Positions 1,339 through 58,528 of a stretch of 64,000 bases of DNA are shown piece by piece. The position numbers were made by a program, and so were the translations under genes. How positions within the stretch are numbered: the first letter of the stretch is position 1; every line of letters starts with the position of its first letter. The notes under the pieces are model-generated. The model was given only the letters and a program-made list of their open reading frames with translations. It searched no databases and was not told where the DNA came from. The stretch comes from Carcharhinus amblyrhynchos (lineage: Eukaryota). The stretch lies in assembly GCA_965287045.1 (NCBI GenBank), contig OZ336875.1:54250001-54314000 (forward strand), given 5' to 3'.

Positions 1339-1952
1339 ACAAAGAACAATACAGCACAGGAACAGGCCCTTCAGCCCTCCAAGCCTGCGTCGCTCATGCG
1401 CCCAACTAGACCATTCATTTGTATCCCTCTATTCCCAGTATGTTCATGTGGCTATCCAGATAAGTCTTAAACGATCCCAGCATGTCCGCCTCAACCACCT
1501 TGCTTGGCAGTGCATTCCAGGCCCCCACCACTCTCTGTGTAAAATACGTCTCCCTGGCATCTGTGTTGAACCTTGCCCCCCTCACCTTGAACTTGTGACC
1601 CTTGTGTTCATCACCTCCGACCTGGGAGAAAGCTTCCCACTGTTCACCCTGTCTATGCCCTTCATAATTTTATACACCTTTATTAGGTCGCTCCCCATCC
1701 TCCATCTTTCCAGGGAGAACAACCCCAGTTTACCCAATTTCTCCTCATAGCTAAGACCCTCCATATCAGGCAACATCCTGGTAAACCTTTTCTGCACTCT
1801 CTCTAATGCCTCCACGTCCTTCTGGTAGTGTGGTGACCAGAACTGGACGCAGTATTCCAAATGTGGTCAAACCAACGTTGTATATAGCTGCAACATCATA
1901 TGCCAACTTTTATACTCTATGCCCCATCCAATAAAAGCAAGTATGCCATATG
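1337..1952 (-). mobile_element. CR1 LINE 3' end (ORF2 C-terminus + 3' UTR), outer element
   Basis: ORF 1582-1860 EYCVQFWSPHYQKDVEALERVQKRFTRM is CR1 ORF2 C-terminus; 3' tail cctgtgctgtattgttctttgttc on minus strand. Confidence 0.95.
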
Positions 1953-3395
1953 GCGGAGGTGATAGTGGATGCCTTGGTGGTTATTTTCCAGACGTTGCTG
2001 GATTCCGGGGAAGTGCCAGAAGATTGGAAAGCGGCTAATGTTACGCCGTTGTTTAAGAAGGGTGCCAGGCAAAAGGCAGGGAATTATAGGCCGGTTAGTT
2101 TAACGTCTGCTGTAGGTAAAATGTTAGAATCCGTCATCAAGGAGGAAATAGCGAGGCATCTTGAGGGGAATTGCTTGATAGAGCAGACGCAGCACGGTTT
2201 CGTTAAGGGGAAGTCGTGTCTGACAAATTTACTTGAGTTCTATGAGTATGTGTCTAGGGCGGTGGATAGAGGAGAGCCAGTGGATGTGGTCTTTCTTGAT
2301 TTTCAGAAGGCGTTTGACAAGGTACCTCACAAGAGGTTATTGCAGAAGGTCAGGGGACATGGAGTTGGGGGTGGGGGGTTAGTGTGGATAGAGGATTGGT
2401 TGTCAAATAGGAGGCAGAGAGTGGGGGTCAATGGGTGCTATTCGGATTGGCGGTTGGTGACTAGTGGAGTGCCTCAGGGGTCGGTGCTGGGGCCTCAGCT
2501 ATTTACCATTTATATAGATGATCTGGAGGAGGGAACCGAGTGTATGGTGTCGACATTTGCTGATGACACCAAGATTGGTGGAAAGGCAAATTGTACGGAG
2601 GGTGTGGAGAGTCTGCGGAAGGATCCAGATAGGCTGGGCGAATGGGCCAGGAACTGGCAAATGGAATTTAATGTTGGCAAGTGCGAGGTGGTACACTTTG
2701 GTAGGAATAATGGTAGGAAGGATTATTACTTACGTGGAGAAAAACTGCAGCAGGCGACGGTGCAGAGGGACCTCGGGGTCCTTGTGCATGAGTCACAAAA
2801 ACCCAGCTTGCAGGTGCAGCAGGTGGTCAGGAAGGCGAATGGGATGCTGGCCTTCATAGCGAGGGGGATTGAATATAAAAGTAGGGAGGTCTTGCTGCGG
2901 CTGTATAGGGCATTGGTGAGGCCGCAGCTGGAGTACTGTGTGCAGTTTTGGGCGCCGTACTTACGCAAGGATATTTTGGCCTTAGAGGGAGTGCAGAGGA
3001 GGTTTACTAGGCTGATGCCGGAGTTGAGGGGGTTGAGCTATGAGGAGAGGCTGAATAAACTAGGCTTGTACTCATTAGAGTTTAGAAGAATGAGGGGAGA
3101 TCTCATTGAGACGTATAAGATGATGAATGGGATGGATAGGATAGAGGTGGAGAGACTCTTCCCGCTCAGAAAGGACAGTAGGACTAGGGGGCACAGCCTC
3201 AAGATAAAGGGGGGGCGGTTTAGAACAGAGTTGAGGAAGAACTTCTTCACTCAAAGGGTGGTGAATCTCTGGAATTGTCTGCCCGTTGAAGTGGTGGAGG
3301 CTACCTCGCTAAATATTTTTAAGAAGCGGGTTGATGGGTTTTTGATAAGAGAGGGGATTAAGGGTTATGGGGAGAGGGCGGGAATGTGGAACTGA
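1950..3395 (+). CDS. CR1 ORF2 reverse transcriptase domain, uninterrupted 481 aa (5'-truncated element, no endonuclease)
   Basis: Motifs NYRPVSLTS, QHGFVKGKSCLTNL, FLDFQKAFDKVPH, GVPQGSVLGPQLF, FADDTK; no stops or frameshifts. Confidence 0.95.
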   Translation: MAEVIVDALVVIFQTLLDSGEVPEDWKAANVTPLFKKGARQKAGNYRPVSLTSAVGKMLESVIKEEIARHLEGNCLIEQTQHGFVKGKSCLTNLLEFYEYVSRAVDRGEPVDVVFLDFQKAFDKVPHKRLLQKVRGHGVGGGGLVWIEDWLSNRRQRVGVNGCYSDWRLVTSGVPQGSVLGPQLFTIYIDDLEEGTECMVSTFADDTKIGGKANCTEGVESLRKDPDRLGEWARNWQMEFNVGKCEVVHFGRNNGRKDYYLRGEKLQQATVQRDLGVLVHESQKPSLQVQQVVRKANGMLAFIARGIEYKSREVLLRLYRALVRPQLEYCVQFWAPYLRKDILALEGVQRRFTRLMPELRGLSYEERLNKLGLYSLEFRRMRGDLIETYKMMNGMDRIEVERLFPLRKDSRTRGHSLKIKGGRFRTELRKNFFTQRVVNLWNCLPVEVVEATSLNIFKKRVDGFLIREGIKGYGERAGMWN

Positions 3396-3485
3396 GCCAC
3401 GACAGATCAGCCATGATCTTATTGAATGGCGGGGCAGGCTCGAAGGGCCAGATGGCCTACTCCTGCTCCTATTTCTTATGTTCTT
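1953..3485 (+). mobile_element. Young 5'-truncated CR1 inserted into another CR1, 5-bp TSD ATATG
   Basis: ATATG at 1948-1952 and 3486-3490; removing the insert restores gcaagtatgccatatgccttctt (cf. uninterrupted paralog at 50207-50229); 3' tail cctatttcttatgttctt. Confidence 0.92.
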
Positions 3486-3490
3486 ATATG

Positions 3491-5248
3491 CCTTCTTCAC
3501 CACCCTCTCCACCTGTGCTGCCAACTTTAAGGACCTGTGGACTTGCACACCCAGGTCCCTCTGTGTGTCTATACTCCTGATGGTTCTGCCATTGATTGTA
3601 TAGCTTCCCCCTGCATTAAATCTACCAAAATGCATCACTTCACATTTATCTGGATTAAATCCCACCTGCCATTCCTCTGCCCGATTTTCCGGCCTATCTA
3701 TATCCTGCTGTATTCTCTGACAACGTTCATCACTATCCGCAACTCCAGCAATCTTTGTGTCGTCCGCAAACTTACTAATCAGGCCAGCTATATCTTCTTC
3801 CAAATCATTTACATATATCACAAACAGCAGAGGCCCAGTACAGAGCCCTGCAGAACACCACTCATCACAAACCTCCAACCGGAAAAAGACCCCTCCACTC
3901 CACTTGGCCATAGAAGACAGACCCCTCCGTCTGTCTTCTATGGCCAAGCCAGTTCTGAATCCATCTAGCCAGTTCATCTTTGATCCATGAGATTCAACCT
4001 TTTGCATCAGTCTGCCACGAGGGACCTTGTCAAATGCTTTACTAAAATCCATGTAGACGACATCCACTGCCCTTCCCTCGTCAATCATTTTTGTCACCTC
4101 CTCAAAAACCTCAACCAAATTTGTGAGGCAGGACCTCCCTTGTACAAAACCATGTTGTCTATCGCTAATGAGAATATTCAGTTCTAAATGTGTATAGATC
4201 CTATCTCTAAGAATCTTCTCCAACAATTTCCCGACCACGCACGTCAAGCTCACTAGCCTATAATTACCCGGGTTATCCTTGCTACCCTCTTAAATAACTG
4301 GACCACGTTTGCTCTCCTCCAATTCTCTGGGACCTCACCTGTGTCCAGTGAAGAGACAAAGCTTTCTGTTAGAGGCCCAGCAAGGGGGAAAGCCACGGGG
4401 GTATTCTCTGGTACATGACCTTTACCCTTCCCAACCGTGACCCATGTGTCTTCCTCCCGTGGCCCCAGTGTGACTAGCTGCTTGTAACTTCTCTCTATTA
4501 ATTCCTCATTCTCCCTGCCTAAACTATGGTCATTGAACTGCAGCTCCAGTTCCCTAACGCGGTCCCTCAGGAGCTGCAGTTCAACGCACCTGGTGCAGAT
4601 ATGGACTTCCGGGAGGCTAGGCGACTCTATGAACTCCCACATCCGACACCGAAAGCAGCAAACTGGCCTCTCACTCACAATTATCCCTTTCTTTAAATTA
4701 CTGGAAGAACGAAGAACAGAACCTACCCTGCCTCTGCCTGTTTACGCTGAAGCCTGTTGAGCCAAAGCCCTTCAGCCTTCACTCTGCTCCCTCCCGCTCC
4801 GCGCCCGCTCTCAACACTGCCTGCTGTATAGAGTGGCCTGCTCTTTATAGCTCCCGTTCACCACTGGCTGGTGTCAGGTGCCTGCACAGTTTTCCCAGTA
4901 AAAAAACTTTTGCAAAGGGAAAAAGCCTGGGGAAAAACCTACAGATAAATAAATAAATAAATAACCAAACACTAGCTGCCTTACCTTCAGCACAAATCTC
5001 TCCCTCTCAATCTTGCTCTGGTCGCACAATGAGGTTGATTCCCCACGTAAGTAACTTTTATATTAAAATAAAAAACTCAAATTCCCAGAGTACCCCACAG
5101 TCCACTTCCGCTTTCCCAGTAAAAAAAGACTTCTGTAAAGGAAAAAAGCCCGCAAAAAAATTTAACGGATAAATAAATAAATAACTAAACACTAGCTGCC
5201 TTACCCTCAGCACAAATCTTTCCCTCTCAATCTTGCTCTGGTCGCATA
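3491..5248 (-). mobile_element. CR1 outer element: RT region, internally deleted ORF1/ORF2 junction and 5' UTR
   Basis: ORF 3309-4253 has YMDFSKAFDKVP and KFADDTK; ORF 4253-4678 begins with Cys-rich + coiled-coil CR1 ORF1 N-terminus and runs directly into ORF2 (SSLDTGEVPENWRRANV). Confidence 0.9.
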
Positions 5249-39666: not shown

Positions 39667-40822
39667 GGGCCCGATTTTACCATTTTGATTCTTAGTGCTG
39701 AATCTGGGAGTGTTTCAGATCCGACTTTTAGCCCCATTCTCCAGCGCCTCCACACACACGCTGCCTGAAAAAAAGCAACAATTCCGAATCATGCTGTAGA
39801 AGTGTGTGGGCGGAGCTTATTGCGCCCAAAACCCTGCAGCTCCGATCAGACCCTTCAACTGCGCATATGCAGTAAAAAAAGTAGAAAAACGCTCCTCTGC
39901 CACAACACTTCTGGGCCCGATATTTCCTCCCCCTGGCCCCCAGAGACATTGCCCCCCCCACCATATAAGTGACCTCCTTATCCTACCCAACCCCCACTTG
40001 CCAGACCAATCGCAGCCCCCGCCCCCATCCCCAGCCCACCGATTGTACGCAGAGTGGCAGGGAATCCCCCTTCGCCGCCACCAATCGCCACAGAGTGGCA
40101 GTGGACCCCCACCAGACAGCTATCTGACCCACTTCCCTCACCCCCCCACCAGACAGCTATCTGACCCACTTCCCTCACCCCCCACCAGACAGCTATCTGA
40201 CCCACTTCCCTCACCCCCCCACCAGACAGCTATCTGACCCACTTCCCTCAACCCCCCACCAGAAAGCCACTTGACCTGCCTTCCTCCTCTCCCCCGACCA
40301 AACAGCAATCTGACCCTCCTCCCTACCTCCTACCAGAGAGCCATCAGACCTGCCTCCCTCCTTCCCCCCACCAGAGAGCCTTCTGACCAGCCTCCCTCAC
40401 CCCCTCCCCGCATTAGACAGACATCTGACCCACCTCTCTCCTTCCCCGCCCCACAACCCCACCGCCAATCTGAGTTAGAGAGCGGCTGGAACCTCTGAAC
40501 TTACCTCCTCAGAAGCTGGAGCATCTGAATCAGACCTTTGCAAACCATGTCTGTTTCGCATCAAATCTGGTCTGGCGAACACAGTGGTAAAGGGGGAAAT
40601 GCCAGTAAGTTTGGGTGTCCAGCCCATTAAGTCAATTTAAATGCATGCAAATACATTTAAATTGATGTTTTCGGTCATGGTGTCAACAGCAGCCATTTTA
40701 GGCCCTTGGTATAGCGAGAACGGGAGCGGAGGCAGTCGCAGATCGCGCTAGTCACTTCACGCCTGACTTTACCAAATTTTTACGCCCAAAAATGGGTGCA
40801 ACTTGATGGTAAAATCGGGCCC
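39667..40822. mobile_element. GC-rich MITE with perfect 17-bp TIR gggcccgattttaccat
   Basis: gggcccgattttaccat ... atggtaaaatcgggccc; same family as 22672-24064. Confidence 0.85.
40111..40440. repeat. Minisatellite, 36-37 bp unit, 4 near-perfect plus ~4 degenerate copies
   Basis: accagacagctatctgacccacttccctca(c)n starting at 40111, 40148, 40184, 40221. Confidence 0.95.
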
Positions 40823-47272: not shown

Positions 47273-48692
47273 ACAGGGAATTTTTTTTTTCATTTTATAT
47301 TCAATTCAATCCAATCAAGTCCAATTCAAAGTCTCAGCAAGTGAGACATTACTGATCCAAGCTGACAGGCCAGCCTCTTCCTGTCCTGGGCTTGATCTAC
47401 ATGATCCAAGCTGATTGGAGCAGGCATTGCACCACCATCAAGGCTTGATCACATCTGCATCTTAGCCAAATGTGCAGGATGCACTTGGTCTTAACCAAAA
47501 GGCCAAGATGCAACAGGATTTTTTTTTGTTTATATCCAATTCAATCCAAAGTCTAATTCAAAGTCTCAGCAAGTGAGACATTCCCGATCCAAGCTGACAA
47601 GACAGGCTGGCCACTCCTGTCCTGGGCCTGATCTATATGCTCCAAGCTGATTGGAGCAGGCATTGCACCTCCTCCAAGACTTGATCTCATTTGCATCTTA
47701 GCCAAAACACCGAGATGCCACTTTAAAAAATTGTTTCAAATGAAGCCTCATTGTAACCTTATGACTTCAACCAAGTGTAGCACAGCAAAACTACACTTGA
47801 CCTTAACCAAAAGGTCAAGAAGTGACAGGGATTTTTTTTCAAAAATATACTTTATTCATATACTCTGAAACAAACCATTATGGAAACAACATTTCCAATC
47901 ATTACAACCAGTGCAAAACACAATCATATTTACAATTTCCTTAACTTGAACATTTTACAGTGCTTAGTTCCAAGACATTGCATGCATTACAGTTCAGCTT
48001 TTCAGCAAACTATATACATTCCTCACATATCACTGCTTGCTGTTTTTACAGAGTCGCACACAGATACATAGTCCAAGGGTTTGAAGCGACAGGGAATTTT
48101 TTTTGCATATACATCCAATTCAATCCAATCAAAGTCCAATTCAATCCAAAGTCTAATTCACAGTCTCAACAAGTGAGACATTCCCGATCCAAGCTGATGA
48201 GACAGGCCAGCCGCTTCCTATCTTGGGTTTGATTTACAAGATCCAAGCTGATTGGAGCAGGCACTGCGCCACCTCCAAGACTTGATCCCCATTTGCATCT
48301 TAGCCAAAAGGCCAAGATGCCACTATTAAAAATTGCTTCAAATGAAGCCTCAGTGTGACCTCATGACTTTTTTTTAAACTTTATTCCAATCCAATCAAGT
48401 CAAATTAAACCCAATTCAGAGTCCCAACAAGTTGGGACATTCCCGATCCAAGCTGACAAGACAGGGCTCTCACCTCCTGTCTTGGGCTTGATCTACATGA
48501 TCCAAGCTGACTGGAGTAGGTGTAGCTCCTCCTCCAGGGCTTGATCTTATTTGCATCTTAGCCAAATGGCCGAGATGCCACTTTAAAAAATTGCTTCAAA
48601 TGAAGCTGAAATGTAACCCAATGACTTCAACCAAGTGTAGCATGTCGATACTACACTTGATCTTAGCCAAAAGGCCGTGTGACCTCATGACT
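47273..48692 (-). mobile_element. Tandem/nested array of four U2-snRNA-headed, poly(A)-tailed short retroposons (SINEU-like)
   Basis: Units at ~47281-47518, 47519-47831, 48097-48367(+48677-48692), 48368-48676; U2 nt 10-40 exact at 48647-48677; poly(T) at each unit start on plus; TSD gtgtgacctcatgact at 48353-48368 and 48677-48692. Confidence 0.88.
47832..48082 (-). mobile_element. 5'-truncated LINE 3' UTR (probably Tx1/L1 clade) with 13-bp TSD
   Basis: Ends atgaataaagtatatttttgaaaaaaaa; TSD gaag(t/c)gacaggga at 47819-47831 and 48083-48095. Confidence 0.7.
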
Positions 48693-55550: not shown

Positions 55551-57361
55551 AGCACAAAGCAAAAGGGATTAGGAATAGTAGCAGTGTATATGTTCTCCAC
55601 CTTAAGTCATGCTTCTACATCGCCTCCCTCCCAGTTGGAGAAGGTACAGGGGCTGAGAAATAAACAAGTGTCAGAGAAGCAGAGGATACACGGGCAGATA
55701 CCTTGCTAATGAAGAAAGTTGAGGTAAGATGGACTAAGACTAAGAGATATATACAGATTACACTCACATTTGAAATGACACATGCATATTGCAGGGTAAA
55801 GATGTATTGCATATTCCTGCTGTTGCAATCAAAACAGTAAATGTTTCCAACCTTTCATTTATTGCAAGAGAGATGTGATTTGTCAGTAACATTAAGTCCC
55901 TCTCATGATCTCAGTTTCCTAGGGGAACACATTTTCTATTTGTACAAATAAGAATAATCGCTTTTGGGTCAGAGAATTCCTGGGAAATATTTATTTAACG
56001 TATGGAGGCACCACTTTAAATTGATAATTTGGGAACCATGTTAAAGCTATCCCACGAATTGATCGCGGGAGGGAAGTAGGGCGGGGGATGGACAGAAGAT
56101 GCTTTGTTCTGAGGGAGCAGTGGTCACTCTTTTTGGGAGATGGAGATTGAGAAAAACTACAACAAATGGATGACTGGGGTCTGTTATGCCAGCATAAAGT
56201 GAAAGGTTATGGATAATGAGTGTTTGCTGGAAGAGAGCAGTAGTTCATGAAGCATGCGCTCTGGGAGTAGCAATAATTTGTAGAGTTATTTATTAGGATT
56301 ATGCTCAGCTTTAGCCCAGTATAGTTGTAACATTGCAGAACTAACCATTTCAATATCCTCTAAAGTGGGAGAGTTTGTGGACTTTAATGCTGGAATAATC
56401 TAATTTTACAGTACATCAGACAACAGCCTAAGACTGCTATACACATTCCAGTAGCAAATTTTATCTTTTTATATAGCTTTCTATTACTAAGATAGTTTGT
56501 ATTGATAGAAATGGAACACCACTTATAATATTTTTATGTAATGCACAGTCTGGAGACTCAGAGGGTGGAACCTTGTGACAGTAACAGAAGCCTTGGCTGC
56601 TGGCTGGAGAGCTGGCAAGATCCCTGCATTGTTACTTTTCAAGTGGCCCACTGCCACTCAGGCCAAAAATCAAGGACTCTGGTGACTGACGTCCCATCCA
56701 CCAAGAGCCACCATCCAATCAGATGTCAGCACCATTTTGTAATTGGCAGTGCCACTATGGAGGACGTGGTTGCTGCTGGCACAACTGAGTGATGATGGAA
56801 AGGGCATCCCAGGGAGGGGTTTGTGGGGGAGGGAGAGAGGTGCATCGGCAGCAAGGACAGGAGGGTGGCTTTCAGCACGCTTCATTCTCCTTTCAACCCC
56901 CCATCAGGCACTACTGAGTGCTTTTGAATGAAAGACACCCTAGGAGTCGGCAAGCAAATGTTCACTGCATGGGACCTTCCGCCACTGACTTAATTGTAGT
57001 GGAGGTGGTGTCCTCTAGCCTGATTAAATGCCCTCATGGCACCAAACTCACCAGGGACAGGGCACAAAATACCACCCAATAACCCTGAAGATTGAGCTTG
57101 CCTTGAGTCTTGTCATCAGGTCTCCATATGTGGTGCTTTGCTTTTCTCACAACAGGAGAAATGCTGTTTGGTCTTCACTGAGAGCCTTGTTCTTTCTTTT
57201 CTCTTTATGTTAACAATTAACTAAGGATCGCTCCTTAAGCTAGAAGAAGTTAGGTTTTATTCCAGCTTTAAAATAGAAGTCTACAGCCCCTCTGTGAGAA
57301 GCTGCAGCTAGTTAGCTTAAACTGGTTTTAAGAAGCTTTAGGCGGTTGTTTTTCAGAAAGC

Positions 57362-58528
57362 GTGGATTTCAGCAAGGCCTTTGACAAGGTCCCCCATGGG
57401 ACGTTAGTTCAGTCACTAGGTATACATGGGGAGGTTGTAAATTGGATTAGACACTGGCTTAATGGAAGAAGCCAGAGAGTGGTTGTGGAAGATTGCTTCT
57501 CTGAGTGGAGGCCTGTGACTAGTGGAGTGCCGCAGGGATCGGTGTTGGGTCCATCGCTGTTTGTCATCTATATCAATGATCTGGATGATAATATGGTAAA
57601 TTGGATCAGCAAATTTGCTGATGATACAAAGATGGGAGGTGCAGTGGACAGTGAGGAAGGTTTTCAAAGCTTGCAGAGGGATTTGGACCAACTAGAAAAA
57701 TGGGCTGAAAAATGGCAAATGGAATTTAACACAGACATGTGTGAGGTATTGCACTTTGGAAGGACAAACCAAAGTAGACCGTACAGGCTAAATGGTTGGA
57801 CTCTGAAGAGTGCAGTTGAACAGAGGGATCTGGAATACAAGTACAGAATTCCCTAAAGGTGATGTCACAGGTGGATAGAGTCGTAAAGAATGCTTTTGGT
57901 ACAGTGGCCTTTATAAATCGGAGTATCGAATATAAAAGTTGGAGTGTTATGGTAAGGTTATATAAGGCATTGGTGAGGCCGAATTTAGAGTATTGTGTAC
58001 AGTTTTGGTCACCTAGTTACAGAAAGGATGTAACTAAGGTTGAAAGAGTGCAGAGAAGGTTCACAAGGATGTTGCCAGGACTTGAGAAGCTGAGTTACAG
58101 AGAGAGATTGAAGAGGTTAGGACTTTATTCTCTGGAGCATAGAAGAATGAGGGGAGATTTGATAGAGGTGTATAAGTTTTTGATGGGTACCGAAGAGTAA
58201 ATGCAAGCAGGCTTTTTCCACTGAGGCTAGGGGAGAAAAAATCCAGAGGGCATGGGTTAAGGGTGAAAGGAGAAAAGTTTAAAGGGAATATTAGGGGGGG
58301 CTCCTTCATGCAGACAGTGGTGGGAGTGTGGAATGAGCTGCCAGATAAAGTGGTAAATGCGGGGTCACTTTTAACATTTAAGAAAAACTTGGACGGGTTC
58401 ATGGATGAGAGGGATATGGAGGAATATGGTTCAAGTGCAGGTCAGTGGGACTAGGCAAAAAATGGTTTGGCACAGACAAGAAGGGCCAAAGGTCTGTTTC
58501 TGAGCTGTAATTTTCTGCGGTTCTATGA
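57362..58528 (+). mobile_element. 5'-truncated CR1 RT + 3' UTR (frameshifted)
   Basis: DFSKAFDKVPH, GVPQGSVLGP, KFADDTK, LEYCVQFWSP. Confidence 0.95.

Follow-up and report, generated by a model that had tools for sequence, protein, structure and literature searches.

The segment 47273-48692 of the window, i.e., the whole stretch of 64,000 nucleotides from the shark Carcharhinus amblyrhynchos analysed here, raises the question of how several related retroposon copies, some of which start with the 5' part of U2 snRNA, came to be stacked at one place on the minus strand. The reading we favour, with a probability of roughly 70%, is that this array consists of four copies of a U2-headed SINE and the end of one LINE of the Keno family, that the SINE is likely copied by Keno, and that its heads likely serve as decoy targets.

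Re-examination of the minus strand recovers the four related units of the original prediction, D, C, B and A (mean column identity in the alignment, 74%), each of which ends in (GATTG/GAATT)n followed by poly(A). They lie in series as described, but not contiguously, the end of a Keno-family LINE (47832-48082) intervening. The array opens with the 5' copy (48677-48692) of the target site duplication (TSD) of unit D, which is identical to the 5'-most 16 nt of unit C. Unit D itself (48368-48677, poly(A) at 48375-48368) is a young U2-headed SINE that is 5'-truncated at U2 nt 10; its head (48677-48647) matches U2 nt 10-40 at 31 of 31 positions, as had been claimed, in both U2 gene types of the same genome. 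The duplication around D is exact over 16 bp (48692-48677 and 48368-48353); however, D is located at the 5' junction of C rather than within C, as originally proposed, because C is head-less and no C sequence is present upstream of the duplication. The older, 5'-truncated unit C (48097-48368, poly(A) at 48104-48097, nearest-neighbour identity of 0.865) is followed by the 5' copy of the duplication of the Keno fragment (48083-48096, the 8-nt target motif plus the first nucleotides of B), by the fragment itself (251 bp, the older, 5'-truncated 3' end of a Tx1 LINE with 3' UTR, poly(A) signal and poly(A)), and by the 3' copy of the duplication (47819-47831). Unit B (47519-47825) is older and near-full-length, with a head of U2 nt 2-37 (31 of 36 positions shared with the U2 genes of this genome). 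A target-motif spacer (47513-47518) separates B from the likewise older unit A (47281-47511), in which U2 nt 4-33, by comparison with the same genes, are fused to the body; the last copy of the target motif (47273-47280) begins the 3' flank. The short form of A looks like a one-off deletion, likely of ~80 nt in this single copy; a short subfamily was considered and rejected, given that none of its 39 other best matches aligns across its first 25 nt.

The 8-nt target motif stands downstream of four poly(A) tails, and "tccctg", which had been assigned to the head of B, is rather target DNA that recurs behind each of these tails. The duplication of the Keno fragment spans 13-14 bp and takes in the first 7 nt of B; since its 3' copy overlaps U2 nt 2-8 of B, the fragment was inserted when B was already in place. 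Unit C appears to predate both B and A, and D landed on the head-less C, so that the order of the units in the window is not strictly one with the youngest copy at the 5' end. At the Rfam gathering threshold, no match is found within the window, with U2 appearing below the threshold only.

The host is confirmed as a shark by an exon of myocardin in the same assembly, which shares 96% identity with a houndshark protein and at most 89% with its counterparts in other cartilaginous fishes. The family extends far beyond this locus. In the assembly (2.92 Gb, about 36 large contigs), a search started with unit D identifies 2703 candidates; the best 39 other copies among them are 99% identical to D, lie on many contigs and represent a young subfamily, and a search started with unit B gives 2826 candidates, the best others of which are 86-89% identical. 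The exact 24-nt head-body junction of the young type occurs 726 times genome-wide (control, 0). A profile derived from 60 copies finds 2 matches in 790 kb of evenly spaced DNA (79 of 80 stretches; reversed control, 0), which translates into an estimate of about 7,400 copies (wide interval, 900-26,700), so the total is probably in the thousands. A TSD (score of at least 7) flanks 47 of 128 copies, compared with a mean of 1.07 and a maximum of 3 in 30 shuffles (2 of 130 copies were excluded for having no tail). The family is ~318 bp long, non-coding, poly(A)-tailed, TSD-flanked and dispersed, with young and old subfamilies, and the structure is shared across 203 distinct aligned copies, which are not independent chimeras. 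The 726 junctions and the TSDs bear out the predicted SINEU-like family in a shark, and the existence of a U2-headed SINE family appears virtually certain. The heads start anywhere between U2 nt 1 and nt 25, with 33 of 128 beginning at nt 1-2, and the homology to U2 is lost after nt 37 in 11 of 56 heads (old type) and after nt 40 in 35 of 56 (young type); the head corresponds to U2 nt 1-37 or 1-40 and ends, as had been pointed out, beside the Keno target site. The dispersed target sites themselves (37 examined) have a weak A-rich|T consensus just at the junction, with little resemblance to the U2 site, and at least 8 As are present in 1 of the 37. Sequence of the element is also present in 20 public runs from 11 studies (at least half of its words in 16 of the 20), which carry 7 coded organism labels and one of which may be the source sample; none of these listed runs is an RNA run.

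From the 5' end, the SINE consists of the U2 head, an inverted copy of U2 nt 25-39, a linker rich in T, another copy of U2 stem-loop I, two duplicated hairpins and a terminal one, after which come the repeat tail, a poly(A) signal and poly(A). In unit D, U2 nt 25-39 and their inverted downstream copy are predicted to form a 15-bp hairpin (48629-48662, minus strand) with several G-U pairs; 94% of these pairs are kept across 72 copies, and the paired part of U2 is the branch-point recognition region. The internal second copy of stem-loop I reported in the original prediction (U2 nt 4-27) is found in D (48555-48578, 22 of 24 positions matching U2), C (48320-48297) and B (47718-47695), and is likely an older head. 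It is followed by two predicted hairpins of ~54 nt that are tandem duplicates (48441-48548; alignment score of 52, against a mean of 16 and a maximum of 32.5 in 1000 shuffles) and by the terminal hairpin (48421-48438), in which one pair shows a compensatory change at the subfamily level (U-A in 40, C-G in 20 and U-G in 7 of 72 copies). In minimum free energy folding, a young copy has a z-score of -6.04 and unit B one of -3.51. Variants shared by at least 8 of the 72 copies fall in 10 of 144 paired and 32 of 123 unpaired columns, and stem variants that keep the pairing make up 7 of 9 shared and 45 of 184 rare ones, in a test that is partly circular. Double changes are seen in 10 pairs, compared with 6.8 after shuffling (a level reached in 47 of 500 shuffles), and some of the kept pairs may reflect CpG decay. 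The consensus fold from RNAalifold is weak (-11.8 kcal/mol, with a double change in 3 of 34 pairs). Given this weak fold and the partial circularity of the variant test, selection on the predicted RNA structure of the SINE is graded as likely and no higher. A Pol III SINE was considered and rejected: the only Rfam family detected across the units is U2, with no tRNA, 5S or 7SL head, and runs of T are present in both head and body.

[quoted passage not shown] A typical representative of the LINE is the copy at L077, in a 407-bp U2 array, with an ORF1 of 419 aa and an ORF2 of 1190 aa (both open, stop to stop); it encodes APE endonuclease, RT and zf-RVT domains, its relatives are Tx1-type proteins, none of the matches carrying a Keno label, and ORF2 is 38% identical to a Takifugu RT over 1121 aligned positions. 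Among 30 young Keno loci, all 13 located in arrays resume at U2 nt 39, which is the reported insertion site of Keno and Utopia in the accessible text of PMC4640811; the other 17 are dispersed outside the arrays. The 5' junctions of Keno in arrays, 12 of which are distinct, end at U2 nt 40-57. The genome contains two types of U2 genes that share about 88% identity; one type occurs in ~10.55-kb repeats (L031-L040, contig C45 and small contigs) and the other in 407-bp tandem arrays (L041-L050, contigs C98 and C334); Keno is seen only in the latter. In a separate locus, L157, a young Keno copy is directly followed by sequence that resembles the beginning of a histone gene.

The original prediction allowed for the SINE being a non-autonomous deletion derivative of a U2-targeting LINE, and one may extend this to an internally deleted Keno or to independent U2 retropseudogene chimeras, given that full-length Keno copies in the arrays likewise begin behind U2 nt 1-57 and that some SINE copies exceed the Rfam threshold for U2. 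However, the body of the SINE resembles neither the UTRs nor the ORFs of Keno, the U2 head and poly(A) signal excepted, so that the SINE is not a deleted Keno, and one structure is common to the 203 distinct copies. An origin of the body from whole U2, to which Rfam alignments over nt 1-192 pointed, was likewise rejected: U2 nt 41-191 align with the body no better than shuffled sequences do, 41-239 of 300 of which score as well. This explanation is thus ruled out, save for a distant Keno lineage with this body as its UTR, and is the least probable of those weighed here by a wide margin. Certain SINE copies, at L393:1528-1720, L395:1536-1734 and L384:612-810, score 53.5-59.1 bits against the Rfam U2 gathering threshold of 46; such copies may be taken for U2 genes when shark genomes are annotated.

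The connection to Keno is stronger than originally proposed, with an exact motif of the Keno tail located at most 64 nt before a U2 head motif at 75 loci (control, 0), and with a SINE at the Keno site itself. Among 30 such tail-head junctions that were fetched, 28, the window included, run on into the SINE body. In 69 independent loci ordered by position (from 70 of the first 71 listed junction matches), the SINE abuts another SINE copy in 6 and has a Keno tail directly upstream in 5; the chance of each of these adjacencies is P about 1e-12, with densities taken at their upper bounds. The suggested self-targeting thus stands for the 11 of 69 stacked loci, far above chance, but the remaining 58 are not directly stacked. 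When 19 further loci from the older Keno family are considered, a SINE lies directly behind in 4 and directly before in 2, and 169 copies collected with SINE-only queries have Keno directly upstream in 9 cases and directly downstream in 2. Thus, it is very probable, from comparison of sequences, that the proteins of Keno mobilise the SINE; the shared target is evidence of the same kind as that used for a Tx1-clade LINE in the paper that defined SINEU.

The SINE might instead depend on another L1/Tx1 partner that prefers A-tracts and encounter Keno through a common preference for poly(A) tails. The targets are A-rich just before the junction, the tail of the SINE shares no sequence with that of Keno, and our survey of L1/Tx1 LINEs covered Keno alone, all of which would fit. 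However, tails of the SINE and Keno account for no more than ~6% of tracts of eight or more As (point estimate, 1.5%), whereas 16% of the copies are stacked, so a preference for A-tracts alone is insufficient to explain the stacking; only the single site among 37 has such a tract. Furthermore, targeting of tails predicts that the younger copy lies downstream, which is opposite to the age order seen, and the insertion point of the SINE at L384 coincides exactly with that of Keno. Another partner therefore seems quite improbable.

The 5' junction of Keno is visible in 21 of the 30 fetched loci, and, judged by eye, the duplication carries head bases of the SINE in 7 of the 21, including the window, which shows that in these loci the SINE was present before Keno; one more locus is probably of this kind and one resembles a single composite event. 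The reverse order is clearly shown by none of the 21, and the remaining junctions are ambiguous. At L320 and L333, Keno likewise came after the SINE, a private variant of L333 being present in both copies of the duplication. In 26 pairs of adjacent SINEs, the upstream copy looks younger in 16 and the downstream one in 3, with 7 ties (one of them a split single copy); the choice of loci favours this bias towards younger upstream copies, which amounts to 16 of the 19 pairs that could be decided (P 0.004). In 8 of 10 loci, the downstream partner starts within the head, at nt 25, 31, 32 or 39, and at L029, L271 and L279 it starts at nt 36 or 39; many other junctions lie 5-25 nt before nt 1 of the head. 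These scattered positions indicate that no fixed register is set by the U2 sequence. On balance, the dispersed U2 heads fairly probably direct new insertions.

A different view of the stacks is that they are single events in which the reverse transcriptase jumps from the end of one RNA onto the poly(A) of another, with the U2 heads acquired by template switching to U2 snRNA, an abundant RNA. Joins without a spacer at L159, L169 and L393, junctions at the A runs of the head, and extra heads at L013, L252 and L386 are compatible with such jumping, and template switching is the explanation favoured for SINEU head additions by Kojima (2015), as given in the accessible part of PMC4494074. Nevertheless, the duplications with SINE head bases, in particular the private variant of L333, need SINE DNA to be there before Keno; neighbouring SINEs within a stack mostly share 78-94% identity and hence differ in age; and the head itself is inherited, because the head-body junction is common to 726 copies. 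Template jumping is ruled out as the general cause and is an improbable account, although it remains for a minority of the joins.

A more serious competitor accepts mobilisation by Keno but attributes the stacks to reuse of rare hot spots, where the nick is determined by the upstream flank and the regenerated TSD, the head is irrelevant and later insertions come to lie 5' of earlier ones. In the window, the identical 8-nt target is found behind four poly(A) tails and D landed on a head-less C; elsewhere, the target motif is kept between elements at many junctions and independent insertions occupy homologous positions in other repeats. Reuse of hot spots does occur, since insertions recur at the same spots of other repeats (4 pairs) and the 5' region of a CR1-like LINE hosts 5 of 169 copies (two of which were used in query building), compared with 0.08% of random points. 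However, this explanation leaves unexplained both the insertions within the head at nt 25-39 that have SINE-derived duplications and the 9 to 2 asymmetry of Keno upstream and downstream. As the sole cause it is unlikely, though less so than template jumping or another partner; reuse of hot spots probably acts alongside the head-directed mechanism.

The CR1-like 5' region, which has tandem ~118-bp repeats before an ORF1-like frame, contains recurrent insertions of the SINE or Keno at L260/L366, L395, L397, L393, L265 and L334, and further ones at L025, L062, L117 and L291, in the same orientation where checked. It is possible that this region is a second preferred target and a source of promoters.

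Under the head-directed mechanism that we favour, the endonuclease and reverse transcriptase of Keno would prime on the poly(A) of the SINE, and a shared tail sequence would not be needed. For L1 and Alu, poly(A)-dependent use of a partner with no tail in common is established. The dispersed U2 heads would then act as decoy targets of Keno, and new copies of the SINE or Keno would land at or inside the 5' end of older ones, giving rise to stacks. The U2 promoter would drive transcription of copies within U2 genes, and the transcripts would begin with U2 nt 1-37 or a longer stretch; such transcription would account for a head that ends at the Keno nick, for the internal older head and for the extra heads on some copies, and would supply a source gene for an element that has no internal promoter.

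A U2 gene unit that carries the SINE is seen at L384, which begins with a truncated Keno and poly(A), continues through U2 nt 38-192, array spacer and U2 nt 1-37 into a whole SINE from nt 1, and then, beyond the SINE, through poly(A) and U2 nt 38-45 into a second truncated Keno and another SINE. This is one locus, located on a large contig, and its U2 unit is 84% identical to the present-day array. Taken together, L384 (G000:C4:96468695-96471756) and L396 present a displaced U2 array unit between two Keno pieces, likely U2 array DNA exported by read-through of Keno, i.e., 3' transduction. The SINE may have entered after the displacement of the unit; either way, its position in the U2 unit is that of Keno insertions. 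At L252 and L397, U2 sequence through nt 51, within the range of the 5' junctions of Keno (nt 40-57), precedes a truncated SINE, as expected of insertion into a U2 gene with a duplication; a template switch to U2 snRNA could fit too. L252 also contains, at 1405-1444 (head-oriented), true U2 nt 9-48 and ~49 nt more before a young SINE, all within one apparent TSD. Two exact, mismatch-free patterns designed to reveal the SINE inside a current U2 gene gave 0 matches each in an assembly in which the arrays may be under-represented, and the fetched U2 array loci contain U2 genes and Keno with no SINE body. Three young copies, at L006, L027 and L123, have in common a 46-bp 5' extension that comes from another, abundant repeat (1013 candidates), which suggests that other sources of transcription probably exist; the extension may point to read-through from a non-U2 promoter, although its source locus is not among the 20 loci fetched of 40 scored. 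We put the case for U2-embedded copies as promoter-supplied source genes at somewhat below even.

More tentatively, U2, Keno and the SINE might form a closed loop, in which a promoter-less SINE would enter U2 genes via Keno, be transcribed there by the U2 promoter and gain a fresh U2 head in each round, thousands of dispersed heads would act as decoys and pull Keno from the U2 arrays across the genome, and the branch-point sequence would be enclosed in a selected hairpin. If true, such a loop would explain the origin and the transcription of snRNA-headed SINEs and would present a SINE that reshapes the targeting of its LINE.

Among non-autonomous elements associated with site-specific LINEs, the SIDEs derived from R2 and other co-transcribed elements are LINE-derived and confined to the target locus. 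The shark SINE resembles them in riding a site-specific LINE and in its likely reliance on the promoter of the target gene, but it is not LINE-derived and has spread genome-wide; co-transcription in R2 is cited in the available portion of PMC4494074. The closest known relatives by class are SINEU-1, -2 and -3, defined in crocodilians and, according to the part of Kojima (2015; PMC4494074) available, found in no other group, with a head from U1 or U2 snRNA and a partner inferred to be Tx1-Mar, of a Keno-related group. The shark family has the features that define this class, namely, a U2 head, a shared dispersed structure, poly(A), TSDs and a link to a Tx1-clade LINE. The likeness to the crocodilian elements, as far as these are described in that part of the source, extends to the length below 500 bp, internal oligo-T, absence of a tail shared with the LINE, nested or repeated snRNA heads, tandems sandwiching TSDs, 5' extensions derived from repeats, and a young subfamily of ~99% identity; it is drawn from these class features. 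By the same text, the shark case differs in its host, in a partner that is Keno itself, still resident in U2 arrays, rather than Tx1-Mar, in the copy within a U2 gene unit, and in its recurrent neighbours (its own head, Keno and the CR1 5' region, with no Mariner-type target among those seen, compared with the preference for Mariner-N4_AMi in crocodilians). It is a second case of SINEU, probably independent of the crocodilian one.

The shark LINE was called Keno from its ORF2 type, APE endonuclease and U2 nt 39 site. It shares with Keno, as portrayed in the accessible sections of PMC4494074 and PMC4640811, the combination of APE endonuclease and RT, the 3' junction at U2 nt 39 and a duplication of at most 20 bp, and differs in being also widely dispersed (the 17 of 30 young loci). 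Utopia has the same insertion site but a restriction-like endonuclease (PMC4640811, same sections), and the APE endonuclease of the shark LINE therefore sets it apart. The reported range of Keno comprises frogs, fish, lancelet and hydra, and sharks are not named in these sections. In listings of the open literature on SINEU, Keno, Tx1 and elasmobranch SINEs, no shark SINEU was found: the parts available of PMC5381603, PMC5786205 and PMC4758252 mention SINEU with no shark case, and in those of PMC5499810, PMC13343379 and PMC10620051 the terms "snRNA" and "Tx1" are absent. The claim that the family is undescribed in sharks holds for that literature; an entry in Repbase or Dfam is plausible.

The transcription of SINEU and the gain of snRNA heads are questions left open by PMC4494074, as far as the available text goes, and the shark case makes both testable, because one subfamily is very young, the ORFs of the partner LINE are open and one SINE copy lies in a U2 gene unit. 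It also bears on the loss of specificity by site-specific LINEs, and the young copies might be of use as insertion markers.

Several further observations concern individual loci. At L013:783-1808, head-to-head SINE copies, one with an extra head of U2 nt 1-36, flank an inverted copy of the target site, and at L274 the SINE body is inverted after the first ~70 nt in a manner resembling twin priming. Outside the array, the window contains remnants of CR1-type LINEs at 1935-3395 (plus strand; an open RT frame of 486 aa, Pfam RVT_1), 3309-4741 (minus strand) and 57332-58200 (plus strand), and a minisatellite at 40106-40404 with ~8 copies of a 37-bp unit.
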